A stretch of 39,743 bases of DNA from Gemmatimonadales bacterium (GCA_035577525.1 DATLVL010000323.1:1-39743), one strand, 5' to 3'. Counted from the stretch's first letter, positions 8,594 through 34,531 are shown. Translations and numbers: made by a program. The notes: generated by a model from the letters alone, not told the origin.

Positions 8594-8599
8594 CAGCCA

Positions 8600-8791
8600 C
8601 TAACCTCCGTAGGTCAGGTCCTCGAGCGAGTTCGGCACGAGCGCCTTGAGCGTCTGCCAGTCGTCGGGCAGTGTGAGCGTCACGACCGTGCCGGACGGCA
8701 GCTTGCAACTGACGATCAGTTTGCCGGTATGCACCCAGGTGCCGTCGGTCTGCTGCCCGTTGACCAGCGTGTAGACATCAGACGTGGACAT
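8600..8791 (-). CDS. Hypothetical small virion-module protein (63 aa)
   Basis: ORF that overlaps the upstream gene. Confidence 0.5.
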   Translation of the reverse strand: MSTSDVYTLVNGQQTDGTWVHTGKLIVSCKLPSGTVVTLTLPDDWQTLKALVPNSLEDLTYGG

Positions 8792-9813: not shown

Positions 9814-10099
9814 TGCCCTTGCTCCGCGGATGCGCTTGCTCGGTCGGCTCGGCCGCCTTCGGCGCTTCTTTGGCTCCCTGCTCCTCGACCCACGCGGCGA
9901 AATTGTCGATGGTCTGCTCGCCCGTAATGGTGTATCCCATCCGCAGGTACTGCTCGGCGTGCGACGCCGGGCCGACGAACGAATCGCCGTCGGTGCGCAG
10001 GAAGGTGAAGTACAGCGTGCTCGGCGGCGTGACGTACGGTCCGTTTTCGTGGACCAGGTTGGCCTGGGCGATGAAGTCGACGGGTGGTGTTTCGGTCAT
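9803..10099 (-). CDS. Hypothetical head-module protein (98 aa)
   Basis: ORF with an ATGA overlap with the upstream gene. Confidence 0.55.
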   Translation of the reverse strand: MTETPPVDFIAQANLVHENGPYVTPPSTLYFTFLRTDGDSFVGPASHAEQYLRMGYTITGEQTIDNFAAWVEEQGAKEAPKAAEPTEQAHPRSKGNAA

Positions 10100-11595: not shown

Positions 11596-11605
11596 TGGCT
11601 ACCCC

Positions 11606-12490
11606 CTACTGTCTGTGAACGGGGATGCCTCGAGTCGATCGATGCCGCACCCCTGGTTTCGGTCTGCCGTTCTCGTCGAACAGCGCGTCGTATTCGGCAA
11701 GGCTCATATTGGCGATCTGCTCATCCGTCACTTCGCGGACGCGACCGGGGGTGCCAGAGTCACGCTCGGGTACGGGTTCGTCGCCGTTCATCTCGCTCAA
11801 CATCGACTTTCGCAGTGCGGACTCGCGCTTTCCGATGCCGAGCTCGACTGCCTTGTCGACGATGTAGCGCATGTATTCTGCCATGCCCTCGGCCGGCGTC
11901 TTGCCGACCCCGAACGCCTTACCCGAGACGTCCTTCTGGATCGTTTCGGGCAGGTCTTTTTGAAACAGCACGATGGCGTCCATGGCTGGCGCCAGGGCCT
12001 GGGCCGATTGCTGCGACGCGAGCTGGGTCTGCAGCTCGCGCTGAGTCATCTCACCCAGGGTGTACAGGTCGTTGTTGGCCGCGGCCTCCAGCTTCGCCGC
12101 ATCCTGACGGTCGCGCTCCTGCTTCGCCAGCAGGTCGCGCGCACGACGGTCGCCGATCTGACCGATCAGACCGGACACGACCTCGTCCTTCTCCAGCTGG
12201 TCGCGCGGCAGGTTCTTCGCCAGCAGGCGCAGCGCTTCGGTCGGGTCTTTTGCTTCACGAACCGCCGCGAACCAGTCGGGCGGCTCGGACTCGGTCGGTT
12301 CGGACTCGGCGACGTCGGGCGCCTCGGGAGGGAGGTCGGACGTCGCCTCGTCCACGGGCGGGGGTGGAGTGCTGGACGCTCCGCCCGTCTCGCCCGAACG
12401 TCTCCGCGAAGGACGCGCGGGCGCAGCCGGCTGCTCGTCTGGCGCGTCGGCCAGGTCGGGGTGGACGGACTTGTCCCAATCGCCGGGCAT
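11606..12490 (-). CDS. Scaffolding protein candidate
   Basis: 294 aa, acidic, helical and low-complexity, directly upstream of the capsid gene. Confidence 0.5.
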   Translation of the reverse strand: MPGDWDKSVHPDLADAPDEQPAAPARPSRRRSGETGGASSTPPPPVDEATSDLPPEAPDVAESEPTESEPPDWFAAVREAKDPTEALRLLAKNLPRDQLEKDEVVSGLIGQIGDRRARDLLAKQERDRQDAAKLEAAANNDLYTLGEMTQRELQTQLASQQSAQALAPAMDAIVLFQKDLPETIQKDVSGKAFGVGKTPAEGMAEYMRYIVDKAVELGIGKRESALRKSMLSEMNGDEPVPERDSGTPGRVREVTDEQIANMSLAEYDALFDENGRPKPGVRHRSTRGIPVHRQ

Positions 12491-13855: not shown

Positions 13856-15786
13856 CAGGTACTACTCGCCAGCGCCACGGGCGCGTTCGGCGCGATGAAA
13901 GAAGCACCTGGCGCTGCGTTCCACGGATAGATCCCTCCTGTATACGCCGTCGCGGCACCGTAATTAGCACCCGGCACCGCGGCGAGCGGCGCAACCATTC
14001 CCGCGGCCTGAGCCGGCGGGATCGCCGGCACGGCAGGCACCACTGGCCGAGCCACCGCCGTTTGCGGAGCGACGGTGGCGGCCTGCTGCTGGCTCGCACT
14101 GGCGGCCTGCGTCGCGGCGACAATGGGATGCTGGGTGTTGGTGAGCTGCTGGTACTTGTCCAGCATTTGCCTGAGCGTGCCGATCGCCGCCTGTGTCGTC
14201 GGGTCGGCGTTATCACTCTTGGGGTCGGCCATCTGGACCATGCGCGCGGCCGAGTCGAGCGTTGCCTGACCGCCCATCAGGTCAGCCGTCCAGCCCGACA
14301 GGCCCTGCACCAGGTTGGCTCCGACGTCGCTCGGATACGACGTGATGTTCTTGTTTTGCAGCGTCTGGCCGAGGATGCTCTGCAGCGTTCCCGTCGCGGC
14401 TTGCGCTCGCTGCTGCAGCAGGTTGCCGGCCGTCTGCGCGTTCGCGCGCGTGTTGGCCAGGACATCGCCCGCCGCGGTCGTCACGTTCTGCTGCGTGTTG
14501 ATGTCGTTGGTCATCCGCGCGTTGGCGGCGTTGATCAACTGGATCGCTTCATCCTGCGAGATGTCGCCCGCGACTACCGTGCCGGTCAGCGACGTGGCCA
14601 GCTGCTTGAGCGCATCCGACGCGGTGATGCGGCCCTCGTTCGGAACCCACTTGAGCTTGCTCGGGTTGTCCGGATCCGGGATCGCGATCAGCCTGGCGTT
14701 GGCGTTCGGCGCCGGTACCTGCACCGCCGGCGGCTGGTAGTTGGTGTTGGGGTGCGACGCGATCAGGTTGCCCTGGTCGTCGTACCACTCGAGGTTCTTG
14801 AGGGTCGTACTGTTGTTGGCCGTCGCCGCTTTGGACACCCCGGGCGGCAGCTTGTACGTGCCGCTGTCGGCGTCGTACAGGTAGGTGATCCCGTTCGACG
14901 TGAGCGTCTTGGGCGGTCCATTCGGCCCGACCGCCACGAGCGCTTTGCTGGCGTCCGTCTCGTTTGGATCGAAGCGGTACATCGACCCGTCTGGATACGT
15001 GACGATCTGGAACGGCGAATCCTTGGTGACGTCGGTCAGCTTGACCAGTTGCTTCTTGGGGTCCGGCTCGTCCTTGTTGAACGAATAAATCGCCGTCGGG
15101 GTGGTGACGATCTGGCGCCCGTCGGCGGTCGTCGAGACCGCGTGGAGCTCGTTGTTGACCGGGTCCCATTGCCCGACCACCCCGCTACTGGCATCACCAG
15201 GTGAGCGATAGACAGGGTTCCACTTCGACGGGTCGGACGCTTTGTTGCCCGCCGCGGACTGGACGCTGGCGCCAATCTTGTTGTTGACCGGGTCCCACAG
15301 ACCGATGATCCGCTTGCCGCTCGGATCGTTCGGATCGGCGATCGGCGTCCACTGCGACGGGTCGGTTGTCAGGTCGCCTTCGACCTTGAATGGCTGCGTA
15401 CCCGGTGGCGCCTTCGGATCGCGCAGATAGACCGCCGGCGTGTTGGAGCCCGCGGGTATCGGGTTACCCTTCGCGTCCAGACGCTCGAGCCCCGCGGCCG
15501 GCGTGCTCGTCGTCGCCGGTTTCCCCTGCGGGCCCTGGATGACGTCGAAGCCGACGCCGCCCTTGGTGTTGGGGTTGTTGCCGACCTCTTTGACGATCAG
15601 CGAGTCGGGCTCGCCGCCGGGCCCCTGGATCGACAGGATGATGCCGGCCTGCTGATCGATCTGCGACGGCTCGCCGGCCAGGCCTGCTTTGGGATTGGCG
15701 ACCTTGACGACGTACGGCGCCTCGCCGACAACCTTGTAGCCGGGCCGCAGCGCGTCGACGGCCTGCTGTTTGGAGTTGTACGGCAT
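13855..15786 (-). CDS. P/N/Q-rich virion protein (643 aa), possible internal/ejection protein
   Basis: ORF coupled by TGATG to the giant gene. Contains a repeated WDPVNN motif. Confidence 0.65.
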   Translation of the reverse strand: MPYNSKQQAVDALRPGYKVVGEAPYVVKVANPKAGLAGEPSQIDQQAGIILSIQGPGGEPDSLIVKEVGNNPNTKGGVGFDVIQGPQGKPATTSTPAAGLERLDAKGNPIPAGSNTPAVYLRDPKAPPGTQPFKVEGDLTTDPSQWTPIADPNDPSGKRIIGLWDPVNNKIGASVQSAAGNKASDPSKWNPVYRSPGDASSGVVGQWDPVNNELHAVSTTADGRQIVTTPTAIYSFNKDEPDPKKQLVKLTDVTKDSPFQIVTYPDGSMYRFDPNETDASKALVAVGPNGPPKTLTSNGITYLYDADSGTYKLPPGVSKAATANNSTTLKNLEWYDDQGNLIASHPNTNYQPPAVQVPAPNANARLIAIPDPDNPSKLKWVPNEGRITASDALKQLATSLTGTVVAGDISQDEAIQLINAANARMTNDINTQQNVTTAAGDVLANTRANAQTAGNLLQQRAQAATGTLQSILGQTLQNKNITSYPSDVGANLVQGLSGWTADLMGGQATLDSAARMVQMADPKSDNADPTTQAAIGTLRQMLDKYQQLTNTQHPIVAATQAASASQQQAATVAPQTAVARPVVPAVPAIPPAQAAGMVAPLAAVPGANYGAATAYTGGIYPWNAAPGASFIAPNAPVALASST

Positions 15787-18700
15787 CAGGCTGCGGGCTC
15801 CCCTGCGACGGTGTACGGCGTCGGGACGGTCTTGCGCACCGCGCGTTGCTTGATGTCGGCGTCGCCCAGCGAGCGAACGAACAGCACGTCGCTATTCTGC
15901 GATGCGTTGCTGATCGCCTTCGAGAGCAGCTGGTTTTTCACACTGATGTCACCGTTCTTATACAGCGTCGAATCCATCACCGCCGCGACCTGCTGGCGGA
16001 TCTGCTCGCCTCGAGCGCGCTGGACCTGGTCCTGCTCTTCGGGGGTCAGGTCAATGGCCCAGCCATTGCCGACATTGACCGACTTGGCCGGCGGCGGAAT
16101 CCGGACGTCGTTGGCGCGCAGCGCCTGCAGCGTCGGCTCGTCGCGCAGGATGTCCGCCCGCAGCGGCAGCGCAAACGCCGCGGCGCCCGAGATGCCCTGC
16201 GTCCGCGGCTCGCCGATCGCCGTGAGCGACTCGGGCACATTCCCGCTCACACCTGGATAGTTGGCCTCCATCGCCTCGACCAGTCCCATCAGACCGTCGT
16301 GCGGGTTACGGCTCGCCACGCCGTACGCGCGCTGAATCTGACGCCCCATCGCCGAGTACGGACCGTAGCTGCTGACCAGGCTCTCGAGGAACTTGTTTGC
16401 ATACCGGGACGGGTCGTGCAGCACGTTGACCGTGTCCGACAGGCCCTGCAGGAAGGTGTTGTCGAGGACGTACTGCCCGATGCTGGTCGCCGCCCGAGCC
16501 ACCTCGTCCTTGTCCAGCAGACTGTGCCCGCGCTTGGCAGCGTCGGTCAGGATCGCCGCCATCGCCAGCGGCGCGCCCGCGGCGCCGAAGTTCTGCATCG
16601 GGATGTAGTACGTGTTGCCGCTGACCGGATCTTCAGCCACCATCGACCACTCGCGCCAACCCTGCGGGTAGGTGCTGGCCTCATTCGGGTCGTACGCGCC
16701 CGTCAGCATGCTCTTGCCACCGGTGAACGTGCCGGCGCCCAGCCCGATACCGAGACCCACGATCGCCGTGCCGATGGCCGTCCTGGCGATCCGCTGCTCG
16801 GCCAGCAGCGTGGCCCGGTCGAGCTGCGCCGTGGTCGCCTTGCCGGTCGCCTCGAGCGCGCCGCGCGCGCGGACCGCTTCGATCGAGCCGGCCACGCCGA
16901 ACGGCGACAGGCCCATGCCCTGGGCGGTGATGTTGGCCGGCGTCTTGATGAACGGCAGGGGTTGGGAGACGACCCCGCGCGCGGCGCCCCGCGGCGCCGG
17001 AATCCAGTCACGGTGCTCCTGGAAGACCATCCGCAGCATGGCGTCGTGGGCTTCCTTGTACAGGTCGGGGTAGTCCTCGAGATTCTTGATGATGTTCGCC
17101 CTGCGCCCGGCGAGCTGCTCGCCGCGGAATCCCTCGCGGTAGGCGTACCTGGTCGCGACCCGCGCGGCCTGCATCGCGAACGCGCCACCCCTGAACAACT
17201 GGTCCTCGGCTTGCAGCGCCCGCAGCGGACCTTCCAACGCGGCGTCGACCTTGCCCGAGCCGGAAGCGAAGCCTGGGCGGATGTTCTCGAGTTTGACCGC
17301 ATCCGCGGGCGTGATCCCCGTCTGCAGGATCTTCACCGCGTCCGGCATCGACGCCAGGAAGCCCGGTCCGTACGCCTCGAGCATCGGTCCGAGCTCGGCC
17401 ATGTAGGCAACCCGCCGCCCGCCGGTCGCCCTGGCGCGGGCCCAGTCGATCGGCACGACCGCGGCGTGCGTGGCCACCTCGAGCGGCACCTGGGTCACGT
17501 TGCCGACCATGTTGGCCATGTGGGTGATCGTCGACGACAGCAGTCCAGCGATACGCAGCGTCTGCGCCCTGGCCCACCAGCCGGGTGTCATCAGCCCCTT
17601 GACGAACTTGCCGGCGGCCAGCGGGTCGTTCGAGTTGACCGCCTCGACATAGGCAGCCAGGAGCTCGCGCGACGGTCTGGCGCCGCCGACCGCCTCGAGC
17701 AGGGTGGTCGCCTTCTGGGTCTGGAGGCTCTGCCGCTTCGACTCGAGATTCCACGCCCGCTTCGCGTCAGCTTCCGCGGACTTCGCGGCCAGGTCCGCGG
17801 CCTTGCGGTACTGCTCGATGTACAACCCGCCGCGGAAGGCGTTACGTTTCGCCACGGCATTCTCGTTGGCCTTCGAGTCCCAGAACGCCATCGTCTCCCA
17901 GGTGTCTTTGCGCTTGGCGAAGTTGTCGCGTTCGGCTTTCAGCTCGGCCTGCAGCGCCGAAAGGAGCTCTTGCGGCGGCTCGCGGACAGCCGCTTTCCGC
18001 CTCGCGGCGGCAGCATCGCGCTGGGCTTTCAGCGCGTTGTAGTCGTCCGCTTTCTCGTGCAGCGACATGGCCTGGTAGCGATCGAGCTGGTCGTACGCCT
18101 CGGCGATCTGGTCGATGATGCTGTTGGAAACCTTGACCCTGGGCGGCGGCGTGCCGGGCATGCCGACCTGCTCACCCGGTCCGACAGGACCACGACGCTC
18201 CGGTGGAATGTTCTCGTAGCCACGTTCGCGTGCAGCAATCTGCTCCTCTTCAGTCGATGGCACTGGGGTGACATCACCGCGCCGCAAGCGCTTGACGACC
18301 GCCTGCTTCTCGGCATCGAGCTCCTTGGCCTGCTCGAGCTGCTGCGTGGCCCGCTTGACGGCGGCCCGCGCCTGCGACGCCAACCTGGTCGCGGCGATGC
18401 GATCGTTGCTGGCGGTAATGCCGCGCGCCAGCGTCGCGTCCAGCCGATTTTTCAGCGCATTCAGCGTGCGACCCGCGGTCGTCCGTCCACCCCTGGCAAC
18501 CGCCAGCAGCCGGGTGTTATTGACCAGCTCGTTGAGCCCGTACGCGACTTGCTCGGGCGACAGCGCATCGACACCGCCACGCGCGGCGATGTCCTTGGCC
18601 ATCTGCTCCGAGCGCGCTTGCGCGTCGATCGCCGCGGCCTGCAACGCGACCATCTCTTCGGTGCTGAAGCCCTTGCCGACCGGTGTTTTGAGCCACTGCT

Positions 18701-21700
18701 CGCGCGTCATGCCGACCTTCGTCGCCAGGTCGGTGACCAGCGAGTCGTGGCTGATCCGCCCCTGACGATAGGCGTCGAAGAGCTCGGGGTTGTCTTCCGC
18801 GGCGCGCTGGATCTGGGCGCGGACCTCGGGCATGTCGCCCTTGAGCATCGCGTCGAGGTTCGGCATACGCGCGACGGTTTCGCTGCTCGGCTCGCCGACG
18901 CGGGCGGCCTCCACGTCGCTGATGCCGCGACCGGTGACGCCGCCCCTGGTGCCGACGACCTCACCTGGTGCCTCGCGCAGACCGTCACCGGTGAGCGGGT
19001 CGGCGTACGACTTCCTGCCGTTCTGGGTGACGATGTCTTCCGCCAGCGAGCCGGGCCCTGACGACGCCTGCTCGGTCGCGTACGGTCCGTGCGGCGCCTC
19101 TTCCTCCCCACCCGCGAACGGCAGGTCAGCCGGCGTCTGCGTCCGAGTCGTGAACCGCTGGCCTGGCGCCGCGTTGCCGAGTTGATCTGCGGCGGCCTGG
19201 ATGTCGCGCTGCTCGGCGGCAAGCGTGTTGCGCTCCGCCCTGAGCTCCGTCGGCGTCGGCTCGCGGCCCGCGTTCGGCGTGCGGAATCCACCCTCCGCCA
19301 GTCGCTTGACCTCGTCGGAGCCCGTGTTCAGCCCGACCTTCTCCCACCACAGCGGCTCGTACGGACTCGCGCCGTGACTGCTGGCGACCTGCGCCAGCTC
19401 GTCGTTGGTCCAGCCAGCCGCCCACGGCGGCCGCTCCGGTTTGGCATTCGGATTGCGTAACTGCTCGTCGATCGACGCGAGTCGGTCCTGATTCTGCTGG
19501 TAGCGCTGGTCCAACTGGTCGTAGTGCGCCGCGAGCTGCTCGTCGGTCATCGGCGTCTCGCCAGCAGCGGCTTCCCGCAGCAGGTGCGGGTTGCTGTGCA
19601 CCTCGCTCAGGCTCTGGGGTGGCGCGCCGGCTGGCTCCCGACCGACGGGACCAGGCCGCTCCGGTGGCAACTGCTCGCCCGGCACGATCGGCACCTCGCC
19701 GCGTTCGCTGCGCGCCAACTCGGCAACGTCGGCCATGCGCGGTGCGCGGAAGCCCCCCTCGAGCGCGCGCGGGACGAGTCGGCCAGCGGCCAGGCCGGCA
19801 CCGGCGCCCAGCGCGATGTTGCGCAGGCGCTCTTCGGGCGTGGCGTTCTCGGGTGTCGCGACGTTGCCGGCCACGCCGCCCGCGACGGCGCCGCCTACGT
19901 TGAGGTGGAGGCCGAGGGTGGATTCTGCGCGTTGTCGGGCGCCACGAAGCCCTCCCCCGGTGGCAGCGGCGGCTCCTGCTTCCGCGGCCGGAGCGGCGTC
20001 GCGGAAGACGGCTTGCGCGAGTTGCTGCCGACGAACGCCGTCCCCTGCTTGTAGACCCAGTGGTCCGGCGGCGCCGGCTTGACTCCCAGCGCGTCCAGCT
20101 CCGCGCGCTCCTGGTCCTCCGGACTCAACGGCATGTGTCGCTCCTCTGTAGTCTGTAAGTGTACCCGATATCCCTTCTGCGTTCAGGATTTGTTGCACTT
20201 GACGAACGAGCGCGACCGCCTTGCCCTCCATCAATGGCACGCGCACGCCCATGCCGGCCGTCTCCCTGAGGACCGGTAGCCCTTGCGCGCGCAGCGCATC
20301 CGAGAGGCGCGCCTGGTCCGCGCGAGATCCTAGGTCAACCGCGATGCCGCCCGCGCTTTTCGCGGTCGGGTCGGCGTGGTTGAAGCGGTCAGCACCGAGC
20401 CGCTGGCCGATCAGGTGCGCGGCGTCGTCGCCCACGCCGGCCACCGTGACGTAGGCGTGCCCGGCCGTCTGCTGAACGTCATGCTCGAGCGCGAGCCACG
20501 GGATCTTGCCCGTCGACGGGTCGACCTGGAGCTCTCCTGGTACGCGAATGACCGGCTGATCGGCGAGTGCCAGGTCGCGCAGCGCAGTCGCCGGCTCGGC
20601 CCCGACTGGACGGCGGATGCCCGTCTTCGGCCCGCTGACCGTGCCGTACTCGAAACCGCTCGGGTCCAGGATGGTGCGCTTCTGCAGCGCGGACTGGATC
20701 GACGGGTGGTAGAGCGCGATGTCGCCCAGCGCCGTCGCGCTCGCCGGTGGCGGAGCGTTGTAGCTGCCGTTCTGACGGATGCGGTCGCGTACGTCGTTGA
20801 TCTTGTTCGACCACGAAGTAGGCGGACCCATCCGTGGACCTCTGACTTCGTCAAGACCACCCGTCGCCAGCGTCTGCGGGTTGAGCAAGCCCGCTTGCTG
20901 CCCCTGCTTGATCGCGTCCGAGAGCCCGATGCGATCGTTGCGGAGCTCGGGCCCGATAATCGGATCGGTCCACAGCGTGCGGAACGTCGTCCACCCCGCG
21001 GCCTGCGCCTGGTCAGGCGGCAGGTTCATCTCGCGCGCCACCCAATTTGTCAGCGCGTGCATGGTGCGGTACGCCTGGTCATTCTGCGACACGTCCGGCA
21101 GCGGCTTACCGCCCTGCACGTCTGGCCTGGCGCCGAACAGCCGGCCCTGATGGACGTCCTGCGTTGAGTACGGCGCGTACGACTCGCTCAGCGCGTGCAG
21201 GAAATCCTGGGTGTAGCTGCTGAGTTTGGCCCCTGACGGGACCGGCACCTCGCCCGTGCGATAGCCGCGCATGACCTTCGCCAGCATGTCGTCGTCGATG
21301 TACGCCGAGTCAGCGCGGACCAGCGCTTGTACGTCCTTGAACGCCGTCGTCGCCTTGACCTGCGGCAAGTCCAGGTTCTCCAAGCCGACCAGGTCGGGCT
21401 TGGCCTGACGCATGGCGTCGAAGACCGACAGCATGGCGTGGTAGTTGGGCTGCACCCCTGCGTTGCCGCCGGTCGCTCCCATCAGCACCGCCGCCTCGCG
21501 CGGGTTGATGTCCTGACCGGTGTCCTGGCGGACCTGCTGCACGATCTGCTGATACCAGCGCGCCGCGGGCAGACCAGCTTCGGTCGCGTCGCGGACCTCC
21601 TGCAGACCACGCGAGCGCGAGCCGGCCATGCCCGGCAGTGACGCGACGTCGGCGCCGCTGATCGTTGGCCGCGGCGTGCCCTGCTGGCGTGCCTGGTCCT

Positions 21701-24302
21701 GCAGGAACGTCTCGGTCGTGTGCTCGGGCGTGCCTGGCTCATAGCCCGGTCGCGGCACGGCTTGACCGTGCAGCACATCCTGCTGCGCCGGCAAACGCAC
21801 GCCCCCCGCCTCCGAGCCGAGGAACTCCGCTACCCGCGGACGAAGCTCTGCGGCGCGATCGATCAGGGTCTGCCCGATGCGCCGCACGACGGGCGCTGCC
21901 GCGGCACTGCCCACGTCCGCCGCCGCGCCGAAGCCGGCCCCTTGCCAGAGCGCGGTAAACACCGATTCAGGCGTCGCGTCCGGCTTCTCGGCCTCCAACA
22001 GCGCGTTCTGAACGCCGCCGATGATGGCCCCGGACGCCAGCTTGTCGGCGACCGTCGACGCGAACTCCACCGCCCGCGGAGCCAGACGACCCGTCAGCAC
22101 GCCGCCAACTCGCTCGGCAGTCGCCGCCCCCGCGGCTCGCCCGAGCCCCATCGACGGGCCAAACGTGGCGATCATCAGTGGGTCCGTGAGCTGCTGGGCG
22201 ATGCTCGTCGTCAGACCGCCCAGAACCAGCACGTCGCGGGCCGGGTTGTTCTGCTCGAGCCACTGGTTCTTGACGTTCTGCGCGTCCTGGTACTGCTGCA
22301 GGCTGATGCCCATCGGCGGGTTGGCGCCGATGATCTGGTTCCAGGCGTTGGATGCGACGTCGCCGACCGTAATCGGCTCGTTGCCGCGCCGGTTCATCGC
22401 CTCCGCCGCGGCCTGGACGTCGCGCTGGTACTGCTCGTCGGCGGCCTGACGCTCCTGCGGCGTTCGGTTCAGCCCGTAGGCGTTGGACACCGCGCCGCCC
22501 AGGTCGGTTACGACGCCGCGCGCACCCGCCCCGATATCGCTGGCCACGCCACCCAGCACCGGCGTTGCCGCCTGGACTGCTGCCGCGCCGGGCTGCAGGC
22601 GGTTGATGTCCTGCGCGGTCTGACCGACTTGCTGCGCCGCTCCACCGAGCGCTGGCGTAATGGCCCGCACCGCTTCCGTACCGGGCTGGATGCGGTTGAT
22701 GTCCTGCGCTGCGCCCAGGACACCCTGCGCCGCGCTGCCCAAGTCCGACGCCACCTGGCCCACTCGAGTGGTAACGGCCTCTGCCGCGCCGCCCAGCACG
22801 TCCTGCGCGGTCTGGATCGGCGTCGGCCCCTGGTCGGCGACGACGTTGCCACTGGCGTCCTGCATGCCGCCCATGACCAGCGGCGCCCTGGCCTGGGGTC
22901 GACCGCCGAGGTTGATCGGCTCGTCGCTGGCGGTCACCGAGCCCTTGGCAGGGACATTGGGGTTGTTGGAGAACAGCGCGCCCTGCGCGGTGCCCATCAG
23001 GTTTTCCATCTGGGCCGGCGTCATCCACTCCGCGCCGCCCTTCAGATCCAGCCCCGAACGTCCAACGTGAAACGCGCCGGACTCCGCGTTGTAGCCGTCG
23101 GCGTAGAAGTAGTGGCCCGGCGTACTGATGGTGACCGGGTTGCCGGTCGCCGCTTCCTTGGCATACGCCGACCAGTCGCGGCCGACGATCTTGGTGTCGA
23201 TGCCGAGGTTGGTCATCAGCTTCTGCTCGCTGGCGATGCCGGCCATGCCGCCCTGCGACGTCCAGCCAACGTCCTTGGCCAGGTCGGTCGCCTCGCGCAG
23301 CGTCGGATTGCGCCCGAACCGCTCCGCGAACCTGACCGCGGCCGCGGGCCCGCAGGCTGCGTAGGCCTCCGCGCTGGTCAGCTGGCTGTCGCCGAACTGC
23401 GAGACATCTTGATAGCCCAGGTCACTGGCGGGTCGCGTGCTGCGCTGCTGCGCGCTCGAGAGGATCGTCTTGACGTAGTTCTGCGTTTCGGCAAACGGTG
23501 GTACGCCGCCGTACTGGTCAACGGCTCCGCCGCCCGCGTTGTAGGCCGCAAGCACCTTCGAGTAGTCGCCGTTGTACTTCTTCAGGTTCTGTGCATCGAG
23601 CCGCGCCGCGGCATCCAGACTGGCGTACGGATCGGTCGGATCGACACCCACGCCCTGCGCGGTGGTGGGCATGAACTGGGCGACACCGAGCGCACCCGCG
23701 GGTGACTTGGCCGTAGGGTCGAAGCCGGATTCTTGCTGGATCTGGGCAACGAAAATCTGCGGATCGATGCCCGCGCGCTGAGCCGCGGCCCTGGCGTAGT
23801 CCTGTAGCGACATCGACCGGTCTGGTGGTGCCGCGGCCGCGCTGGTATCGACAGGTGCGCCACCGCTGATCGACGGCTGCCCGCCGCCAAGCGTCTGGAT
23901 CGTCGGCTGCACCGCCGTCGCCAGTGACTGCAGTCCGCTCTGTGCGCCACCGGTCAGGGTGTTGACGTGGTCCAGCAGCGCGCTCTGCACCTGGTCGCGC
24001 TGCGCGCCGAGCTCAGTCAGCGCGCCGCCGACAGCCTGCTGCCCCTGGCCCAGGACCTGCAGCGCGTTCTGCTGCGCGCCCTGTGTCAGGCCGTTGACGT
24101 GTTGCAGCAGCGTGCTCTGCACCTGGTCGGGCGACGGCACCTGGATCTGTGGCGGCGCCTGCGCCAGTCCAGCAGCGGCCTGCACCGGCTGCACGACCTG
24201 CTGGCCGACCTGCTGCGCCTGACCGAGCAGGCTCTGGACGTGCTGGTGAAGCTGGTCCTGGATCGAGTCGCGCAGGTCGTCGAGGAGGATCGTGCCCGGC
24301 AT
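15786..24302 (-). CDS. Giant multidomain virion protein (2838 aa) with an SLT lytic transglycosylase domain and a papain-like cysteine peptidase domain
   Basis: Uninterrupted 8.5-kb ORF. The SLT motif QQESGFDPTAKSPAGALGVAQFMPTTA...AAYNAG is followed by AACGPAA...TPGHYFYADGY. The rest is long helical repeat regions, with a hydrophobic GLGIGLGAG segment near the C-terminus. Confidence 0.85.
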   Translation of the reverse strand: MPGTILLDDLRDSIQDQLHQHVQSLLGQAQQVGQQVVQPVQAAAGLAQAPPQIQVPSPDQVQSTLLQHVNGLTQGAQQNALQVLGQGQQAVGGALTELGAQRDQVQSALLDHVNTLTGGAQSGLQSLATAVQPTIQTLGGGQPSISGGAPVDTSAAAAPPDRSMSLQDYARAAAQRAGIDPQIFVAQIQQESGFDPTAKSPAGALGVAQFMPTTAQGVGVDPTDPYASLDAAARLDAQNLKKYNGDYSKVLAAYNAGGGAVDQYGGVPPFAETQNYVKTILSSAQQRSTRPASDLGYQDVSQFGDSQLTSAEAYAACGPAAAVRFAERFGRNPTLREATDLAKDVGWTSQGGMAGIASEQKLMTNLGIDTKIVGRDWSAYAKEAATGNPVTISTPGHYFYADGYNAESGAFHVGRSGLDLKGGAEWMTPAQMENLMGTAQGALFSNNPNVPAKGSVTASDEPINLGGRPQARAPLVMGGMQDASGNVVADQGPTPIQTAQDVLGGAAEAVTTRVGQVASDLGSAAQGVLGAAQDINRIQPGTEAVRAITPALGGAAQQVGQTAQDINRLQPGAAAVQAATPVLGGVASDIGAGARGVVTDLGGAVSNAYGLNRTPQERQAADEQYQRDVQAAAEAMNRRGNEPITVGDVASNAWNQIIGANPPMGISLQQYQDAQNVKNQWLEQNNPARDVLVLGGLTTSIAQQLTDPLMIATFGPSMGLGRAAGAATAERVGGVLTGRLAPRAVEFASTVADKLASGAIIGGVQNALLEAEKPDATPESVFTALWQGAGFGAAADVGSAAAAPVVRRIGQTLIDRAAELRPRVAEFLGSEAGGVRLPAQQDVLHGQAVPRPGYEPGTPEHTTETFLQDQARQQGTPRPTISGADVASLPGMAGSRSRGLQEVRDATEAGLPAARWYQQIVQQVRQDTGQDINPREAAVLMGATGGNAGVQPNYHAMLSVFDAMRQAKPDLVGLENLDLPQVKATTAFKDVQALVRADSAYIDDDMLAKVMRGYRTGEVPVPSGAKLSSYTQDFLHALSESYAPYSTQDVHQGRLFGARPDVQGGKPLPDVSQNDQAYRTMHALTNWVAREMNLPPDQAQAAGWTTFRTLWTDPIIGPELRNDRIGLSDAIKQGQQAGLLNPQTLATGGLDEVRGPRMGPPTSWSNKINDVRDRIRQNGSYNAPPPASATALGDIALYHPSIQSALQKRTILDPSGFEYGTVSGPKTGIRRPVGAEPATALRDLALADQPVIRVPGELQVDPSTGKIPWLALEHDVQQTAGHAYVTVAGVGDDAAHLIGQRLGADRFNHADPTAKSAGGIAVDLGSRADQARLSDALRAQGLPVLRETAGMGVRVPLMEGKAVALVRQVQQILNAEGISGTLTDYRGATHAVESGGPGARGAGRAGSQAGAAGPLGLQAGDGVRRQQLAQAVFRDAAPAAEAGAAAATGGGLRGARQRAESTLGLHLNVGGAVAGGVAGNVATPENATPEERLRNIALGAGAGLAAGRLVPRALEGGFRAPRMADVAELARSERGEVPIVPGEQLPPERPGPVGREPAGAPPQSLSEVHSNPHLLREAAAGETPMTDEQLAAHYDQLDQRYQQNQDRLASIDEQLRNPNAKPERPPWAAGWTNDELAQVASSHGASPYEPLWWEKVGLNTGSDEVKRLAEGGFRTPNAGREPTPTELRAERNTLAAEQRDIQAAADQLGNAAPGQRFTTRTQTPADLPFAGGEEEAPHGPYATEQASSGPGSLAEDIVTQNGRKSYADPLTGDGLREAPGEVVGTRGGVTGRGISDVEAARVGEPSSETVARMPNLDAMLKGDMPEVRAQIQRAAEDNPELFDAYRQGRISHDSLVTDLATKVGMTREQWLKTPVGKGFSTEEMVALQAAAIDAQARSEQMAKDIAARGGVDALSPEQVAYGLNELVNNTRLLAVARGGRTTAGRTLNALKNRLDATLARGITASNDRIAATRLASQARAAVKRATQQLEQAKELDAEKQAVVKRLRRGDVTPVPSTEEEQIAARERGYENIPPERRGPVGPGEQVGMPGTPPPRVKVSNSIIDQIAEAYDQLDRYQAMSLHEKADDYNALKAQRDAAAARRKAAVREPPQELLSALQAELKAERDNFAKRKDTWETMAFWDSKANENAVAKRNAFRGGLYIEQYRKAADLAAKSAEADAKRAWNLESKRQSLQTQKATTLLEAVGGARPSRELLAAYVEAVNSNDPLAAGKFVKGLMTPGWWARAQTLRIAGLLSSTITHMANMVGNVTQVPLEVATHAAVVPIDWARARATGGRRVAYMAELGPMLEAYGPGFLASMPDAVKILQTGITPADAVKLENIRPGFASGSGKVDAALEGPLRALQAEDQLFRGGAFAMQAARVATRYAYREGFRGEQLAGRRANIIKNLEDYPDLYKEAHDAMLRMVFQEHRDWIPAPRGAARGVVSQPLPFIKTPANITAQGMGLSPFGVAGSIEAVRARGALEATGKATTAQLDRATLLAEQRIARTAIGTAIVGLGIGLGAGTFTGGKSMLTGAYDPNEASTYPQGWREWSMVAEDPVSGNTYYIPMQNFGAAGAPLAMAAILTDAAKRGHSLLDKDEVARAATSIGQYVLDNTFLQGLSDTVNVLHDPSRYANKFLESLVSSYGPYSAMGRQIQRAYGVASRNPHDGLMGLVEAMEANYPGVSGNVPESLTAIGEPRTQGISGAAAFALPLRADILRDEPTLQALRANDVRIPPPAKSVNVGNGWAIDLTPEEQDQVQRARGEQIRQQVAAVMDSTLYKNGDISVKNQLLSKAISNASQNSDVLFVRSLGDADIKQRAVRKTVPTPYTVAGEPAA
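22983..23390 (-). other. Papain-like Cys peptidase domain of the giant protein, aa ~305-440 (Cys317, His397)
   Basis: The CGPAA and GHYFY motifs have the same Cys-to-His spacing as the endolysin at 1480-1920. Confidence 0.55.
23448..23810 (-). other. SLT (family 1 lytic transglycosylase) domain of the giant protein, aa ~165-285, catalytic Glu191
   Basis: E-S-x-F ... GLMQ-like GVAQF ... AYNAG motif order, with coordinates computed from the ORF start. Confidence 0.8.
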
Positions 24303-27166: not shown

Positions 27167-28450
27167 TCATCGCCTGCCGGCCGCGAAGCGGTACGCGCTG
27201 CGCCCGTGGGGTGCGGACTCGAGCCCTTCGCCGAGGTGCGCCAGTGCGAGCGCGATGACCGTGTCGTCGTGCAATCCCGACGGTGCGGAGTAGCGCACCA
27301 TACCCGTCACGGTCACGCTGCTCTCAAAGGCCAGCAGCTCGGCGGTCTGCACCTGGTCGTCCAGCAGCGTCAATTGCCCCTGCTCGATGGCCAATGCCAG
27401 GCTCTGAATGACCGCGGCCTTCGACGCATTCGTCGCGGTCCACGCGTAGATCGGCAGCGCCGCGCGCGGTCTGCCCACCAGGCGCCCGTAGCCGGTCTGC
27501 AAGCGCTCGACGAGCGGTCCGCCCATCGAGTTGGACTCGGCCACGATCTGCAGCGGGTGGTACAGCTCGGCCCAGCGGTGCAGCCGTTCGGACTGGTACT
27601 CGAAGTCGATGTTCGAAAAGCGGTCCAGCGCGACCTGCTCGCCGACGCTGACGTCGATGACGCTGATGGCCGTGAAGTCGTTGCTGCGACCCCAGTCAAC
27701 GCCGAAGACGTACTGATGCCCGCGCTGGGGTGGTGTTGGCTGCAACCGAGCGACGGCCTGCACGCCGCGGAAGACGCCGTCGCCCTCGAGCTGGACGAAC
27801 TGGGCCAGGTACTCCTGGGCAAAGGCCCGCTCCGGTAGCTCGTGCCGTGCGGCTTCGATCTCCTCCGCGCCGATGTAGGGATTGACGCTGGTCGGCATCT
27901 GCCACGATCGCCACGCCGGCTCGAGTGGGTCCTGGCCGAACTGGTAGACCTGGTGGAAATCGTTGAGTCCGCGGGGTGTCGACAGGAACCACGCGTCGCC
28001 GGCGAAATCCGCGAGGGTCGGGCGGATGGCGAGCTGCCAGATGTCCAGCAGGTTCGACACCATCGCGGCTTCGTCGACCACCACGCGCGCATACTTCCGA
28101 CCGCGGGCCGGGTTCGGGTCGTCCAGCGACCAGAGCTCGATCACACCCCGCGTCGCGAGCTCGAGTCGGTGGTCCTGCTCGGACTTGCTGCGCGTGATCG
28201 GTTCGACCGTGGTGCGCAGCTCGCGCCAGAACTCGCCGAGCAGTTTGTAGCTGGGGGCGAAGTAGCCGGCTGGCCGACCCGCGAGCGCCGCCACAATCAA
28301 CTGGTGCTGGCCGAGCGTGGACTTGCCCGAGCGACGGCCGCACGCGAGCACCGAAAAGCGCGCTCGAGCATCCATCACGTCGCGCTGCCAGTCGAGTGGC
28401 CGCGGCAGGGTGATGGTGACGTTAGTCGGCGTGGCCGTTGCCACGCTCAT
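27167..28450 (-). CDS. terL: Terminase large subunit
   Basis: Walker A ACGRRSGKST, Walker B VVVDEAA, and a RNaseH-like nuclease half (FGVDWGRSNDFT ... GLHDD). Confidence 0.9.
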   Translation of the reverse strand: MSVATATPTNVTITLPRPLDWQRDVMDARARFSVLACGRRSGKSTLGQHQLIVAALAGRPAGYFAPSYKLLGEFWRELRTTVEPITRSKSEQDHRLELATRGVIELWSLDDPNPARGRKYARVVVDEAAMVSNLLDIWQLAIRPTLADFAGDAWFLSTPRGLNDFHQVYQFGQDPLEPAWRSWQMPTSVNPYIGAEEIEAARHELPERAFAQEYLAQFVQLEGDGVFRGVQAVARLQPTPPQRGHQYVFGVDWGRSNDFTAISVIDVSVGEQVALDRFSNIDFEYQSERLHRWAELYHPLQIVAESNSMGGPLVERLQTGYGRLVGRPRAALPIYAWTATNASKAAVIQSLALAIEQGQLTLLDDQVQTAELLAFESSVTVTGMVRYSAPSGLHDDTVIALALAHLGEGLESAPHGRSAYRFAAGRR

Positions 28451-30970: not shown

Positions 30971-31831
30971 CTACACCGCCGCCTCCTCTTTATCGAGCTG
31001 CTCCTGGCGCTCGGAGATGGCCGTGACCAGCTCGTTGCCGCGGCGTTTCAACTCGGCCCGCTCGATCGGCAGCTCGAGCTTGGGCGGGCTCAGTCCAATG
31101 TCGTCCGCGTCCACCACCAGCTCGAGCCAGCGCTGCCAGATCCGTTCGGTTGGCTCGCGCACCAGGTCGCGGTCGGACACCTCGCGCACGTCCGTCGGCA
31201 CGTACGCCTCCTGCACGTCGACGACCGGCGCGCCCTCGTCCACCAGCTCGACATCCGCCAGCTGCTCGGGGAACGCCAGACGCAGGGCCTGCGCGAGCGC
31301 GCATTTGGAAAGCATCCTCCTCGGCATCTTGCGCCACATGCGGCCGACCTCGCCGTCGCCCGGATAGAACTCCGCCCAGTCGGCCGTGCCGCGGAAGGGC
31401 CGCGTCACCGGATGGTCCCAGGGGCCGACCATCTTCCACACCGTCACCTCGGCGTGCATCGGCACATCGATCTCACGCTGGCCTTCCTTCACGGTGAGCA
31501 CGCCGCGGAACTCGGGCGCGTCCGCGCCGCCAAAACGCTGGGTGCGATCGGCCATCGCCGAGAACCCGTCGATCGACGTCGTAAACGTCCACTTGCCGCC
31601 GCGCGGAATCCAGAAGCACTGCCGCTTACGCGGGTCCAATCCGCGCGCTTTAGCCTGGACGCAGAAGCGCAGCAGACCCGCGTTGTCGGCATTCGCCGCC
31701 ACGCCGCCTTCGCCGCGCATCTCGGCCAATTCGACGATGTTGAAGCCGGTCAGCTCGACCAGGTCCTGCACCGAGATGCTCTGCTTTTCGAGCCCAACGT
31801 CCGCCGTCAGCGGCTTGATCGCTTGTGTCAT
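30971..31831 (-). CDS. recT: RecT/Bet-family single-strand annealing protein
   Basis: LLRFCVQAKARGLDP...IDGFSAMADR...WAEY...MWRKMPRRMLSKCALAQALRLAFPE matches the RecT family pattern. The ATG at 31831 (MTQAIK) has an ATGA overlap and GGAGG upstream. Confidence 0.8.
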   Translation of the reverse strand: MTQAIKPLTADVGLEKQSISVQDLVELTGFNIVELAEMRGEGGVAANADNAGLLRFCVQAKARGLDPRKRQCFWIPRGGKWTFTTSIDGFSAMADRTQRFGGADAPEFRGVLTVKEGQREIDVPMHAEVTVWKMVGPWDHPVTRPFRGTADWAEFYPGDGEVGRMWRKMPRRMLSKCALAQALRLAFPEQLADVELVDEGAPVVDVQEAYVPTDVREVSDRDLVREPTERIWQRWLELVVDADDIGLSPPKLELPIERAELKRRGNELVTAISERQEQLDKEEAAV

Positions 31832-32454
31832 GCCACCTCCATGCATGATTGGTGATGGATCACGTCGAGCCAGCGATTGAGACGCGACCAGTTCTGGTCG
31901 GGTCCGTATTTCAGGTAGGTGCCGTCGGCCGAATCGAAAAGCGAAACCATCATCGTGACCAACCTCCGCTCACTGTTGACGCGGCCCTGGTGCGTTGGCT
32001 TGCCGTGCGAACGCGCCCAGCGTGCAGATGCATAGCCCCCATCCTCGGCGAACTTCCACTCGTCGCGGCCGCCGATGAACAGCACGTCGAAGGTGTCCGG
32101 GTTCGGAAACGCATCGTGAAAGCCGTCCTGGGCGACGAACGCCGCGCGGTAGCCGAGTTGGCGAATCGTTTCGAGGTAGGGCATCGACAGTTGCAGCGTG
32201 GCCACGGCGTCGCCGACCACGTCTGGCGCCACGGCGAACAGGCAGTTCTGGCGATAACGGCGGAGGCCAGCCAGCCACTCGAGCCAGTCGCCAGCGTTCC
32301 ATTCGTCAGGCTTGGCGAAGCGTCCGTTGTCGCAGGCGAACTTCCAGAACGGGAACGCCCGCGAGTCATTGCCCATGCCCGGCTGATACATCAGGCCGAG
32401 TTCGGGCCGAGGGTTGGCCAGCAACGTCTGGGTCATCACGCCGCTCAGGTACAT
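31828..32454 (-). CDS. Minimal TGT/DpdA-like (queuine/DNA-guanine transglycosylase-like) barrel protein, tentative
   Basis: 208 aa from the ATG at 32454 (TGATG coupling). Five ordered motifs resemble TGT: CDNG, APDVVGD, VAQDG, FIGG, SLFDSADG. There is no zinc-site Cys cluster. Confidence 0.4.
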   Translation of the reverse strand: MYLSGVMTQTLLANPRPELGLMYQPGMGNDSRAFPFWKFACDNGRFAKPDEWNAGDWLEWLAGLRRYRQNCLFAVAPDVVGDAVATLQLSMPYLETIRQLGYRAAFVAQDGFHDAFPNPDTFDVLFIGGRDEWKFAEDGGYASARWARSHGKPTHQGRVNSERRLVTMMVSLFDSADGTYLKYGPDQNWSRLNRWLDVIHHQSCMEVA

Positions 32455-32675
32455 CACCGCGCCACAAAACCGAAGGTGCCATCGGCCTTCTTGCAGTAGG
32501 TGCCGAAGTACGGCTGACCGCAGTTCGCGTCGGCATATACGCCAATCTGCGTTTTCCAGAGCACATCCCACGCCGCACGATCGGCATACGTGGACCACTT
32601 CCAACTCCCGTCCCACGGGTTGCTGGTCTGAGCGAACAGCACGAGCGCGAGGAGCATCGTCACCAGCGTCGCCAC
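32454..32675 (-). CDS. Small secreted or membrane-anchored protein (73 aa, Trp-rich, 2 Cys)
   Basis: N-terminal hydrophobic segment MATLVTMLLALVLFAQT followed by a W-rich mature part. Confidence 0.55.
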   Translation of the reverse strand: MATLVTMLLALVLFAQTSNPWDGSWKWSTYADRAAWDVLWKTQIGVYADANCGQPYFGTYCKKADGTFGFVAR

Positions 32676-32955
32676 CAGCGCCGCAGCCGCATCAGCCAGT
32701 ACAGCAGCGGCCGCTTGCGCGCCTGTGGCCGCGGCGCGAAGTCCTCGTGCAGATAGAGCACCGACCGCGACAGGCGCATCAGAACAACCTCATCCAGCGC
32801 GCAACGGCCATGCACACGCACACCGTCGCCGCCAGCCAGCCCACCACCAGCAGCACGTCAGTGTCCGTCACGGCCGCCACCCGCGCCCATCGCGGCGCCA
32901 AACAGCAGTGCCACCAGCAATCCGAACAGCAGCCATATCGTCAGGATCTGCAGCG

Positions 32956-33441
32956 CTAACACAAGCCCCTCAACACCGGCACCCACTCGCGCGCGCGCCC
33001 CTGGTTCAGCATCCAGCGCGCCGCGTTGCGCGCCGCCACCGCGTCGAAGGGGGAGAGCCCAGCCCGTCCCTGCGGGGTCGTGCGCCACGTCGACGGCAGG
33101 AACTGGAAGAGTCCACTGGCGCCGCTCGAGCGGTTGACCGCGCCGGCGTAGCCACGCGACTCGTACGCCTGGATGCAGTCGAGCCGCGCCTCGATCGCTG
33201 CATTCAGCGGCGGCGGCAGGACCAGCGGGCGCGGCCGCTCGAGCTCGCCGACGGCGTACAAATACGACCGCGGGCTGAGTCCCGTGGCATTCGCCGCGCC
33301 GAGCAGGTCGACCTGGTCCACGCCGGCTTCATCGGCCAGCGCGACCACGTCGTCCGGGTCGGGGTCGGCCGCCGCGGCCGGTCGGGCCAGACCGAGCAGC
33401 GAGCTGAGCACCATGACGCTGGCCACCAGGTGCCGCGCCAT
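32956..33441 (-). CDS. Secreted lysozyme-like (Rpf/transglycosylase-like) protein
   Basis: Signal peptide MARHLVASVMVLSSLLGLARPAAAA, then CIQAYESRGYAGAVNRSSGASGLFQFLPSTW, which fits the transglycosylase-like pattern C-x-x-x-ES...G-L-x-QF...STW. Confidence 0.65.
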   Translation of the reverse strand: MARHLVASVMVLSSLLGLARPAAAADPDPDDVVALADEAGVDQVDLLGAANATGLSPRSYLYAVGELERPRPLVLPPPLNAAIEARLDCIQAYESRGYAGAVNRSSGASGLFQFLPSTWRTTPQGRAGLSPFDAVAARNAARWMLNQGRAREWVPVLRGLC

Positions 33442-33764
33442 CAGAGCGGGATGTCCTCGTCGTCGTCGTAGTTCGAGCGCGCGTTGTCGCGCAGCCCCGC
33501 GGCGAGCTCCACCTCGGCGCTCTGCTCGGCCTGACGCCAGCGCTCCTCACGCTCGTGCGGCGGGTAGTCCAGCGCGCGCCGCACCTGCGCTGAGGGCGAC
33601 TGACGCAGCTCTTGGTGGACCAGCCGCCTGGCCGTCGCCAGTGCCGCGGCGATCGCCTCGTCGGTGTCGTCGCCGGCGAACACGGTCGCCTCGGCCACCT
33701 CCGACCCGTAATTGCCGTCGGAGACCTGCTTGCGGAACGTCACCCGCTGCTCACTCTCAGTCAT
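33441..33764 (-). CDS. 107-aa protein ending in an SSB-like acidic tail (NYDDDEDIPL)
   Basis: The ATG at 33764 has an ATGA overlap with the upstream stop. The C-terminus resembles the bacterial SSB tip DDDIPF. Confidence 0.6.
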   Translation of the reverse strand: MTESEQRVTFRKQVSDGNYGSEVAEATVFAGDDTDEAIAAALATARRLVHQELRQSPSAQVRRALDYPPHEREERWRQAEQSAEVELAAGLRDNARSNYDDDEDIPL

Positions 33765-34531
33765 ACACCGCACACTCCCTCGCACTCCTCATCGAACATC
33801 TCGAGTTGGCCGCGGTCCTGCTCGCTACGCAGATCGACCTGAATGAGAGGGACGCCGTCGCGATGGACGAAGACCTCCTGCAGACGCGTGCGGGACCGCA
33901 CGCGTCTAATCCGCTCATCGAAATCGACGGCGTCGCGCCAGGACTCCGGATCAGCGCGAATCTCGCGCCACTCGCGGTTCGTACGCAACGGGCAACCAAT
34001 ACAGGCTGACTTGCGCGGGATCGGGTACCCATGCTGCTGCAACCAGGCGACGCAGTCCGCGCGCGTCATGCGCCTGTCGATCAGCGGATAGACGTTCCTG
34101 ATGTACTGCACGTCCGAGTCGCGTACGCGCTGCCACTCATCGAGACTGATGCCGATCAGCTGCTCGACCTGGGGCTTCGTCCCGCCGTTCAACTCGAGCA
34201 CCTTCCGCCGAATCGGGCGGATTTTGTAGTTGCGCGTGCACTGGCGCTTGAGTTGCTCTAGAGCGCCGGTCGGACCGACTGAGTAAAGCGGCTGCCAGGA
34301 CATCGTCTTGTTGTCGAGCGCGTCCTGCCGAAGCGTGCCCGTCCCGACGCGATAGACGGGGATACCTGCTGCTGCCGCGTGGTCCTCGAGTCGGGCGAGA
34401 TGCTCGTACACCCACGCCGGCTCCCAGCCTGTATCAGCGAAGATCGCGGCATCCACGTCCAGCTCGCCCTCGCGCGCCATCAGCAGCAGCGTGCTGGACT
34501 GCACGCCGGCGCCGAGGCTGAGCACGCGCAT
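33761..34531 (-). CDS. PAPS reductase / DndC-IbrA-like PP-loop enzyme (256 aa)
   Basis: MRVLSLGAGVQSSTLLLM (PP-loop variant), CTRNYKIRPI, CIGCP, C-terminal ECEGVCGV. The ATG at 34531 is coupled by TGATG to the upstream gene. The track extension to 34693 is rejected. Confidence 0.8.
   Translation of the reverse strand: MRVLSLGAGVQSSTLLLMAREGELDVDAAIFADTGWEPAWVYEHLARLEDHAAAAGIPVYRVGTGTLRQDALDNKTMSWQPLYSVGPTGALEQLKRQCTRNYKIRPIRRKVLELNGGTKPQVEQLIGISLDEWQRVRDSDVQYIRNVYPLIDRRMTRADCVAWLQQHGYPIPRKSACIGCPLRTNREWREIRADPESWRDAVDFDERIRRVRSRTRLQEVFVHRDGVPLIQVDLRSEQDRGQLEMFDEECEGVCGV

Follow-up and report, generated by a model that had tools for sequence, protein, structure and literature searches.

Do two neighboring phage genes form an enzyme pair that hypermodifies DNA? 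The question is raised by a 39,743-nucleotide stretch of DNA from a Gemmatimonadales bacterium (GCA_035577525.1, DATLVL010000323.1:1-39743), which is called the window below and which is a 39.7-kb phage genome. Next to recT, the window encodes a 208-amino-acid (aa) protein that resembles a tRNA-guanine transglycosylase (TGT) or DpdA and, further upstream, a 256-aa PP-loop protein that resembles PAPS reductase. An original prediction, made from the sequence, held that the two proteins form a dedicated and undescribed DNA-modifying pair. In this study, we arrived at a different answer. The 208-aa open reading frame (ORF) is probably an orphan, minimal DpdA-like transglycosylase (mini-DpdA), and the PAPS-reductase-like (PAPS-like) gene is an independent mobile neighbor rather than its partner.

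The kinship of the 208-aa protein with phage DpdA1 proteins and the solved bacterial DpdA (7ui4) was detectable only by profile-profile or fold comparison. Its sole match in the sequence libraries was phrog_15826, a family of unknown function; NCBIfam and PADLOC gave no relevant match. Conservation was read from 45 homologues that are 51-85% identical to the protein. D42, N43, D78, Q109, G128, H155 and D177 are invariant among them, and G129, D174 and S175 are kept in at least 90%. When the profile of the family was aligned with that of the gp87-type DpdA family of Arthrobacter phage Sonali by hhalign (91.9% probability, E 7e-7), the residue pairs were D42/D37, D78/D73, Q109/H103, H155/H155 and D174/D174, and the motif pairs were CDNGRF/IDSGAF, APDVVGD/LDVIGD, AQ109/WH103, FIGG/AIGG, THQG/LHGLG and FDSAD/VDSSS. 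Since this alignment is significant with the motifs in register, the motif match goes beyond chance. The claim that look-alikes of the five TGT motifs occur in the correct order was thus borne out, both by conservation and by the register with gp87-type DpdA.

Sonali gp87, which is located in a ParB-like/DpdA/QueC/QueD/QueE/FolE cluster, has matches (E 1e-9 to 1e-12) in the DpdAs of phages 9g, CAjan and Iggy, which have been studied by experiment. Its profile reaches 7ui4 over GG..HLLGI..SIDSTT, and the gp87-type IDSGAF aligns with the bacterial DCGAF motif. In the DpdA of S. Montevideo, D95, D130 and D256 serve in catalysis as the acid/base, the base-recognition residue and the nucleophile, respectively; D95 lies in DCGAF and D256 is the Asp of SIDSTT (PMC10164549). 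An AlphaFold2 model computed from the alignment of the family (pLDDT, the predicted local distance difference test, 90.8; pTM, the predicted template modeling score, 0.89) comprises eight strand-helix units, with the conserved residues at or just after strands 3 (D42), 4 (D78), 5 (Q109), 6 (G128-G129), 7 (H155) and 8 (D174-D177). In Foldseek searches, TGT entries ranked first in the PDB (E 1e-4, TM-score 0.53-0.57), and several actinophage queuine tRNA-ribosyltransferase/DpdA entries, including Sonali gp87, were among the top matches in the BFVD viral models. The model and profile checks proposed with the original prediction therefore came out in its favor on this point, giving a TIM barrel, TGT at the top of the PDB matches and a DpdA profile match. 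Taken with the profile alignment, which settles the question, the 208-aa ORF encodes a DpdA homologue that keeps only a (beta/alpha)8 barrel, compressed as predicted and with its catalytic aspartates in the proper order. We propose, by alignment, that D42 is the acid/base, that D78 recognizes the base, that Q109 and G128-G129 form the pocket and that D174 is the nucleophile. H155 is listed with these residues, and D177, near D174, is also invariant.

Several observations weigh against this assignment. PF01702 (TGT) and PF20314 (DUF6610, DpdA4) were unmatched by all 45 members at E values up to 10. Tryptophan synthase alpha, PdxJ and ribulose-phosphate epimerase, TIM barrels without relation to TGT, scored about as well as TGT in Foldseek, so that the fold cannot settle the question by itself. 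The CxCx2Cx22H zinc site is absent on direct reading, as had been stated, and no Cys or His C-terminal to D174 is conserved. Ins8, the large helical insertion at beta8/alpha8 that binds nucleic acid and is pinned by the zinc site, is also absent, and a single helix (185-200) follows beta8 in the AlphaFold2 model. Characterized DpdA keeps both the structural zinc site and Ins8 with its DNA-intercalating Phe265 (PMC10164549), so their loss leaves DNA binding by the mini barrel unexplained. The family profile retrieved only chance DnaK matches from the PDB sequences.

The mini proteins share with DpdA1 (9g, CAjan, Iggy and Sonali gp87 type) and with 7ui4 the TIM-barrel core and the order and identity of the motifs (D-x-G, x-D-V-x-G-D, Q/H-x-G, G-G, H-x-G, D-S). 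However, they are about 90-200 residues shorter, lack the C-terminal extension in addition to the zinc site and Ins8, and end 34 residues past the nucleophile Asp. Relatives of DpdA3 (phiST) and DpdA2 (nt-1) were weak fold matches only (E about 1e-2), and for this reason we did not place the family in DpdA2, DpdA3 or DpdA4. The mini family was not found in the published DpdA1-4 classification, and a literature search found no description of a DpdA5 or DpdA6.

The family itself is large. An exhaustive hidden Markov model (HMM) search collected 3,076 clusters at 50% identity, mostly of 195-230 aa, and with tblastn, members 37-49% identical to the 208-aa protein turned up in 22 phage records on deposit. 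In SEA-PHAGES annotation, gp40 of Arthrobacter phage Aoka, gp81 of Sonali, and gp54 of Mycobacterium phage StevieRay and its close relatives already carry the label "DpdA-like tRNA-guanine transglycosylase". Mini-DpdA is therefore not undescribed, since these GenBank records name its homologues. The proteins of Aoka, Sonali and StevieRay, like phrog_15826, belong to the same family as the 208-aa protein, with 39-49% identity over 85-90% of the length and the same size and motifs. The phages that carry the mini family (ReqiPine5, and Fishburne with its relatives) are absent from the supplementary lists of Hutinet et al. (2019).

To describe the gene contexts, we gathered 77 loci from IMG/VR, 80 from metagenomes and 25 from genomes of Actinomycetota and Chloroflexota, the last with no more than 46% identity, and the neighbors of the DpdA-like gene were clustered and searched with HMMs. 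The counts that follow refer to 170 non-redundant loci. A Vut_1/YhhQ-type transporter gene (PF02592) is present in 92 of the 170 loci (54%), usually directly upstream of the DpdA-like gene and overlapping its start; examples among loci L004-L080 and L186-L266 and in Aoka are listed in Table 1. QueC was found in 11 (6%), QueD in 10, a QueF-like protein (PF14489) in 9 and QueE in 7 of the loci. In several loci, Que genes lie beside the mini protein and no other DpdA was detected. About 40% of the family loci have neither the transporter nor Que genes. A fusion of the mini barrel with a C-terminal QueF-like domain occurs in Nocardia sp. CA-290969, and a Vut_1 gene lies ahead of it. Locus L174 is identical to this locus (L173) over the 357-aa fusion, the barrel of which has an inserted CxxC...CxxC zinc-ribbon-like segment. 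Other members are fused to an N6_N4 DNA methylase domain (P0407) or to an N-terminal DUF6884 domain (P0387).

For the family as a whole, these contexts tie the mini-DpdA protein to 7-deazaguanine bases, and the fusion with a methylase suggests that the target is DNA. YhhQ transports preQ0 and is known from phage CAjan (PMC7544227). In the survey of Hutinet et al., phage YhhQ was correlated with no phage group (PMC6884629), unlike in the mini-DpdA family, where the correlation is strong. The position of Vut_1 directly upstream of mini-DpdA suggests a two-gene salvage module. This transporter is the recurrent partner of the family, and the original prediction overlooked it. The Vut_1 protein of Aoka (gp38) is annotated merely as "membrane protein", and gp53 of StevieRay as "hypothetical protein".

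In the window, this usual partner is absent. We looked for folE, queC, queD, queE, a queF-like gene, a YhhQ-type transporter and a second DpdA and found none, and tblastn with Vut_1 proteins gave nothing significant. That folE, queD, queE and queC are absent had been reported correctly. It had also been expected that the substrate is drawn from outside the phage, which agrees with the absence of a preQ0 pathway from the window. A Vut_1 remnant was considered and rejected because the sole signal was a short stretch that overlaps the 5' end of the DpdA-like gene in relatives. The slot that Vut_1 holds in most relatives is filled by a 73-aa ORF unrelated to Vut_1. Thus the precursor genes of phage 7-deazaguanine systems, none of which occurs in the window, were found at the level of the family, where QueC, QueD, QueE, QueF-like and YhhQ genes surround mini-DpdA as they do DpdA1. 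Aoka and StevieRay have Vut_1 just upstream, Aoka adds the QueF-like gene, and Sonali additionally carries a full DpdA/QueCDE/FolE cluster, whereas the window has none of these.

Because the salvage partner is missing, the gene of the window is an orphan DpdA-like gene of a known class, one without precursor genes. Seventy-six phages encode DpdA only, and the DNA of one of them, Orion, is unmodified (PMC6884629). Such Group-3 phages, which include Orion and Salmonella phage 7-11, have a transglycosylase homologue and no genes for preQ0 or G+ synthesis, as in the window, and whether their DNA is modified is determined by the host or by an exogenous precursor (PMC6884629). They differ from the phage of the window in that their proteins are full-length and of the DpdA1 type.

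If the assignment of the 208-aa protein is correct, mini-DpdA would work by analogy with DpdA: a guanine would be flipped out, an intermediate with Asp bound covalently to deoxyribose would arise, and a free 7-deazaguanine base (preQ0 or a relative) would take the place of the guanine in replicated phage DNA. The exchange would be a double displacement, with D174 as nucleophile, D42 as acid/base and D78, Q109 and the two glycines forming the pocket, and the modified base would presumably blunt restriction. Most members of the family would obtain the base through the Vut_1 transporter or through co-encoded QueC, QueD and QueE. The enzyme of the window, whose phage encodes neither the transporter nor Que genes and which would for this reason depend on base supplied by the host, would work only if the host makes the base available or imports it, and would otherwise be silent, as was reported for the DpdA of Orion.

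The upstream gene was correctly recognized as that of a 256-aa PP-loop protein of the PAPS-reductase type, as shown by PF01507, phrog_424 and a CysH-like model. PF01507 was passed marginally (23.9 bits against a gathering cut-off of 22.5), and phrog_424 matched at E 9e-42. The protein has an SLGAGVQSS loop and five invariant cysteines, C98, C177xxC180 and C250xxxC254. In its AlphaFold2 model (pLDDT 90.8), residues 242-256 score below 50 and form a disordered C-terminal tail. In Foldseek, CysH PAPS reductase came first (E 4e-6), ahead of APS reductase, LarE, TtuA and the ATP-PPase domain of GMP synthase. The profile of the family had no meaningful match among the PDB sequences. The suggested DndC-type identity did not hold, because the closest defense-system model in PADLOC was SspD (E 2.9e-14, residues 2-208) and the DndC and BrxP models gave no match. 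The protein shares the PP-loop fold and conserved cysteines with SspD, DndC, BrxP and CysH; in contrast to the phosphorothioation proteins it is stand-alone and phage-borne, with a cysteine pattern of its own (C98, CxxC, CxxxC). The scanned ORFs of the window, whose small ORFs were not all run against PADLOC, included no SspA/B/C, no DndA/B/D/E and no cysteine desulfurase.

The PAPS-like family exceeds the mini-DpdA family by far in size and spread, with more than 7,500 database matches and at least 585 IMG/VR loci that range from 31 to 70% GC. Phage records include those of Thermus, Pelagibacter, Geobacillus, Salisaeta and Synechococcus and prophages of M. abscessus. The gene has no conserved neighbor. 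ParB-like genes (9 of 80 loci), methyltransferases and recombination genes each occur in about 10% of the loci, and tblastn found no ParB-like partner of the IbrA/IbrB type in the window. Stand-alone phage proteins of this kind have been treated as uncharacterized (PMC11437467), and no paper found in our literature search assigned them a function. The protein is an independent, widespread stand-alone phage PP-loop protein, probably with an Fe-S cluster, and it may act on nucleic acid by transferring sulfur or by adenylation.

Co-occurrence, which had been named as one of the tests of the proposed pair, went against it. A PAPS-like gene lies near the DpdA-like gene in 9 of the 170 loci (about 5%). 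Conversely, a gene of the DpdA family is found in 4 of 80 PAPS-like loci, one being a mini-DpdA and three being gp87-type DpdA, so that about 95% have none. The nearest relatives of the two genes carry one gene each. Loci L004-L008, whose DpdA-like proteins are 80-88% identical to that of the window, have no PAPS-like gene within 10 kb, and their nucleotide homology to the window is confined to 32457-31828. The DpdA-like gene therefore moves as a cassette. On the other side, L081, the most syntenic relative, is collinear with the window over 39364-23964, including recT and the PAPS-like gene (76% nucleotide identity), and lacks the DpdA-like gene. The claim of a dedicated mini-DpdA/PAPS-like pair does not survive these counts.

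The reading of the two genes as a functional pair is nevertheless one that has to be weighed. In this reading, which we consider unlikely, the PAPS-like protein activates or tailors a 7-deazaguanine precursor that is derived from the host or imported, for instance through QueC-like adenylation or insertion of sulfur, and mini-DpdA then installs the base in phage DNA. QueC and PAPS reductases have a common PP-loop fold, and the slot directly downstream, which QueC holds in other loci, is filled by the PAPS-like gene in L062 and L186. In the window, the two genes lie on the same strand in an operon-like array, 1306 nt apart as the predicted 1.3 kb implied, and the minus strand has no terminator-like site between them or anywhere in 35728-30800. 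The positions of the genes elsewhere also speak for a link and against independence. Seven of the nine co-occurring PAPS-like genes are at most 1.5 kb from the DpdA-like gene. The two are adjacent in L226 and, in a contiguous row with Vut_1, in L062 and L186 (in L186 in the order Vut_1, DpdA-like, PAPS-like), and a binomial proximity test against sampled flanks gave P 0.008, uncorrected for relatedness. L091 also links them, the PAPS-like gene of Aoka stands in one block with Vut_1, QueF-like and mini-DpdA genes, and that of L101 abuts a full-length gp87-type DpdA gene and Vut_1. However, co-occurrence remains at about 5% in each direction, and the closest relatives of each gene do without the other, with mosaic borders that coincide with the ends of the DpdA-like gene. 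The distribution of the PAPS-like family is far broader, mostly with no deazaguanine genes nearby, and in the window the 114-aa ORF, the secreted transglycosylase-like ORF, both unrelated, and several small ORFs separate the two genes. DNA methyltransferases occur near the DpdA-like gene at a comparable frequency (8/81 and 6/81 loci), so the proximity is explained by a shared region of modification genes, and we read it as such a variable DNA-modification region. Both genes would then be mobile cassettes of a variable early region that also holds DNA-metabolism and modification genes. The weak positional association leaves room, at long odds, for an optional functional link. As side observations, L123 has a PAPS-like gene followed by QueE and DpdA, and the PAPS-like protein of Aoka (gp36) is annotated as hypothetical. 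Aoka, a cultured phage, is at present the most suitable system in which a link could be examined by experiment.

It is also possible, though unlikely, that the mini barrel has diverged into a DNA glycosylase, an exchanger of another base or a tRNA-directed enzyme, or that it is inactive here for lack of substrate. The lost zinc site and Ins8, the missing precursor genes of the window and the 40% of family loci without transporter or Que genes are consistent with this, as is unmodified Orion, and functional divergence of singleton DpdAs was raised by the authors of that survey (PMC6884629). It is opposed by base-pocket and catalytic residues that are invariant or nearly so across the family, by the strong linkage of the family to Vut_1, QueC, QueD, QueE and QueF-like genes together with the QueF-like fusion, and by the intact gene kept at 80-88% identity as a cassette in several phages. 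For the PAPS-like gene, an auxiliary metabolic role as a true CysH that boosts assimilatory sulfate reduction of the host is highly improbable. The best structural matches are indeed CysH PAPS and APS reductases, the flexible Cys-containing C-terminal tail resembles the ECGLH tail of CysH, and PHROGs classes the family as auxiliary metabolic. However, the TM-scores are just 0.43-0.49, Pfam was passed only marginally, and SspD, the best defense-system match, is a component of DNA phosphorothioation. The gene is located among early DNA-metabolism genes and has ParB-like, methyltransferase and recombination genes as neighbors elsewhere, and C98 and C177xxC180 lie outside the PAPS reductase signature. 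With a probability that we put low, the PAPS-like protein is an optional tailoring partner of the DpdA family in a minority of phages, possibly including that of the window, and, as a separate matter, the mini family is a fifth DpdA class. In such phages, the salvaged precursor could be converted to an undescribed, possibly sulfur-containing base for DNA. The fifth class would consist of a salvage module of a transporter and a zinc-less mini-transglycosylase, carried by phages of hosts that perhaps lack queuosine synthesis. Compared with these alternatives, we favor an orphan mini-DpdA with an independent PAPS-like neighbor.

The genome around the two genes is 66% GC and has nearly all of its coding sequence on the minus strand (Table 1). 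The phage is a soil phage and encodes a serine integrase, a replication initiator, an HNH endonuclease, RecT, a terminase and a capsid protein; no tRNA genes were found in the window. It is distant from any isolate. The best matches of its terminase are those of Halorubrum, Thermus and Tunturiibacter phages, and most large ORFs of the structural region (2100-27000) have no Pfam or PHROG match. A single ORF of 2838 aa makes up 21% of the genome, and matches to it, with a lytic transglycosylase/internal virion protein domain, are limited to the N-terminal ~300 residues. In GTDB, no genome had a relative of the 208-aa protein above 46% identity, and the carriers were Actinomycetota and Chloroflexota.

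Table 1. Positions of features in the window and in related loci.
Record	Feature	Position	Strand	Remarks
Window	208-aa DpdA-like barrel protein	31828..32454	(-)	ATG start; phrog_15826, E 5e-47
Window	256-aa stand-alone PAPS-reductase-like PP-loop protein	33761..34531	(-)	PF01507, phrog_424
Window	recT	30971..31846	(-)	PF03837, E 1e-21; likely start at second ATG, 31831
Window	73-aa ORF, hydrophobic N-terminus	32454..32675	(-)	Stop overlaps DpdA-like start (TGATG)
Window	Run of tiny hydrophobic ORFs (~25-50 codons)	32680-32940	(-)	All on coding strand; between transglycosylase-like gene and 73-aa ORF
Window	161-aa secreted transglycosylase-like (SLT/Rpf-like) protein	32956..33441	(-)	PF06737, E 1e-4; PF01464, E 3e-3
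Window	114-aa hypothetical protein	33441..33785	(-)	Overlaps PAPS-like 3' end by 25 nt
Window	Terminase	27167-28450	(-)	At most 31% identical to any cultured phage's terminase
Window	2838-aa single ORF	15786-24302	(-)	
L186	Vut_1	5512-6039		
L001 (Aoka)	Vut_1 (gp38)	5083-5610		
L004	Vut_1	9496-10053		
L173 (Nocardia sp. CA-290969)	Mini-DpdA/QueF-like fusion, 357-aa ORF	7935-9008		
L001 (Aoka)	PAPS-like gp36, gp37, Vut_1 gp38, QueF-like gp39, mini-DpdA gp40	3619-6567		
L101	PAPS-like, gp87-type DpdA, Vut_1 in a row	9764-12154		
L123	PAPS-like, then QueE and DpdA	1972-5611		

The 208-aa gene starts at its ATG and not at the upstream GTG at 32616, because homologues of about 209 aa begin with M(x)YLSG and nucleotide homology to related phages starts at 32457. 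Translational coupling to recT, as originally described, was confirmed: the stop codon of the 208-aa ORF overlaps the ATG of recT (ATGA, 31831-31828) and a Shine-Dalgarno site is present (GGAGGTGGCATGACA). This site, GGAGGTGG, lies ahead of the second recT ATG (31831), an earlier ATG being located at 31846. However, the coupling is not conserved, since just 5 of 80 loci have RecT in the vicinity of the DpdA-like gene, and there it is not adjacent. For the 161-aa protein encoded between the DpdA-like and PAPS-like genes, the PF06737 and PF01464 scores are under the curated cut-offs, and PHROG transglycosylase families match it too. The 114-aa protein has no family match in Pfam, PHROG or NCBIfam.

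The DpdA-like gene of the window is another orphan of the recognized DpdA-only class, and the proposed pair is not a system. The window should therefore not rank as a priority new hypermodification system. What the analysis provides is a picture of a large family of zinc-less mini-DpdA proteins, the usual partner of which is a YhhQ-type transporter. Mini-DpdA together with this transporter suggests a cheap salvage route to 7-deazaguanine modification of DNA, and this module, which is not in the window, is a more interesting lead than the gene of the window itself. The family gives a rationale to ask why some DpdA-only phages are unmodified, and mini-DpdA, as a minimal scaffold, could serve to find out which parts of DpdA the exchange of bases in DNA requires.

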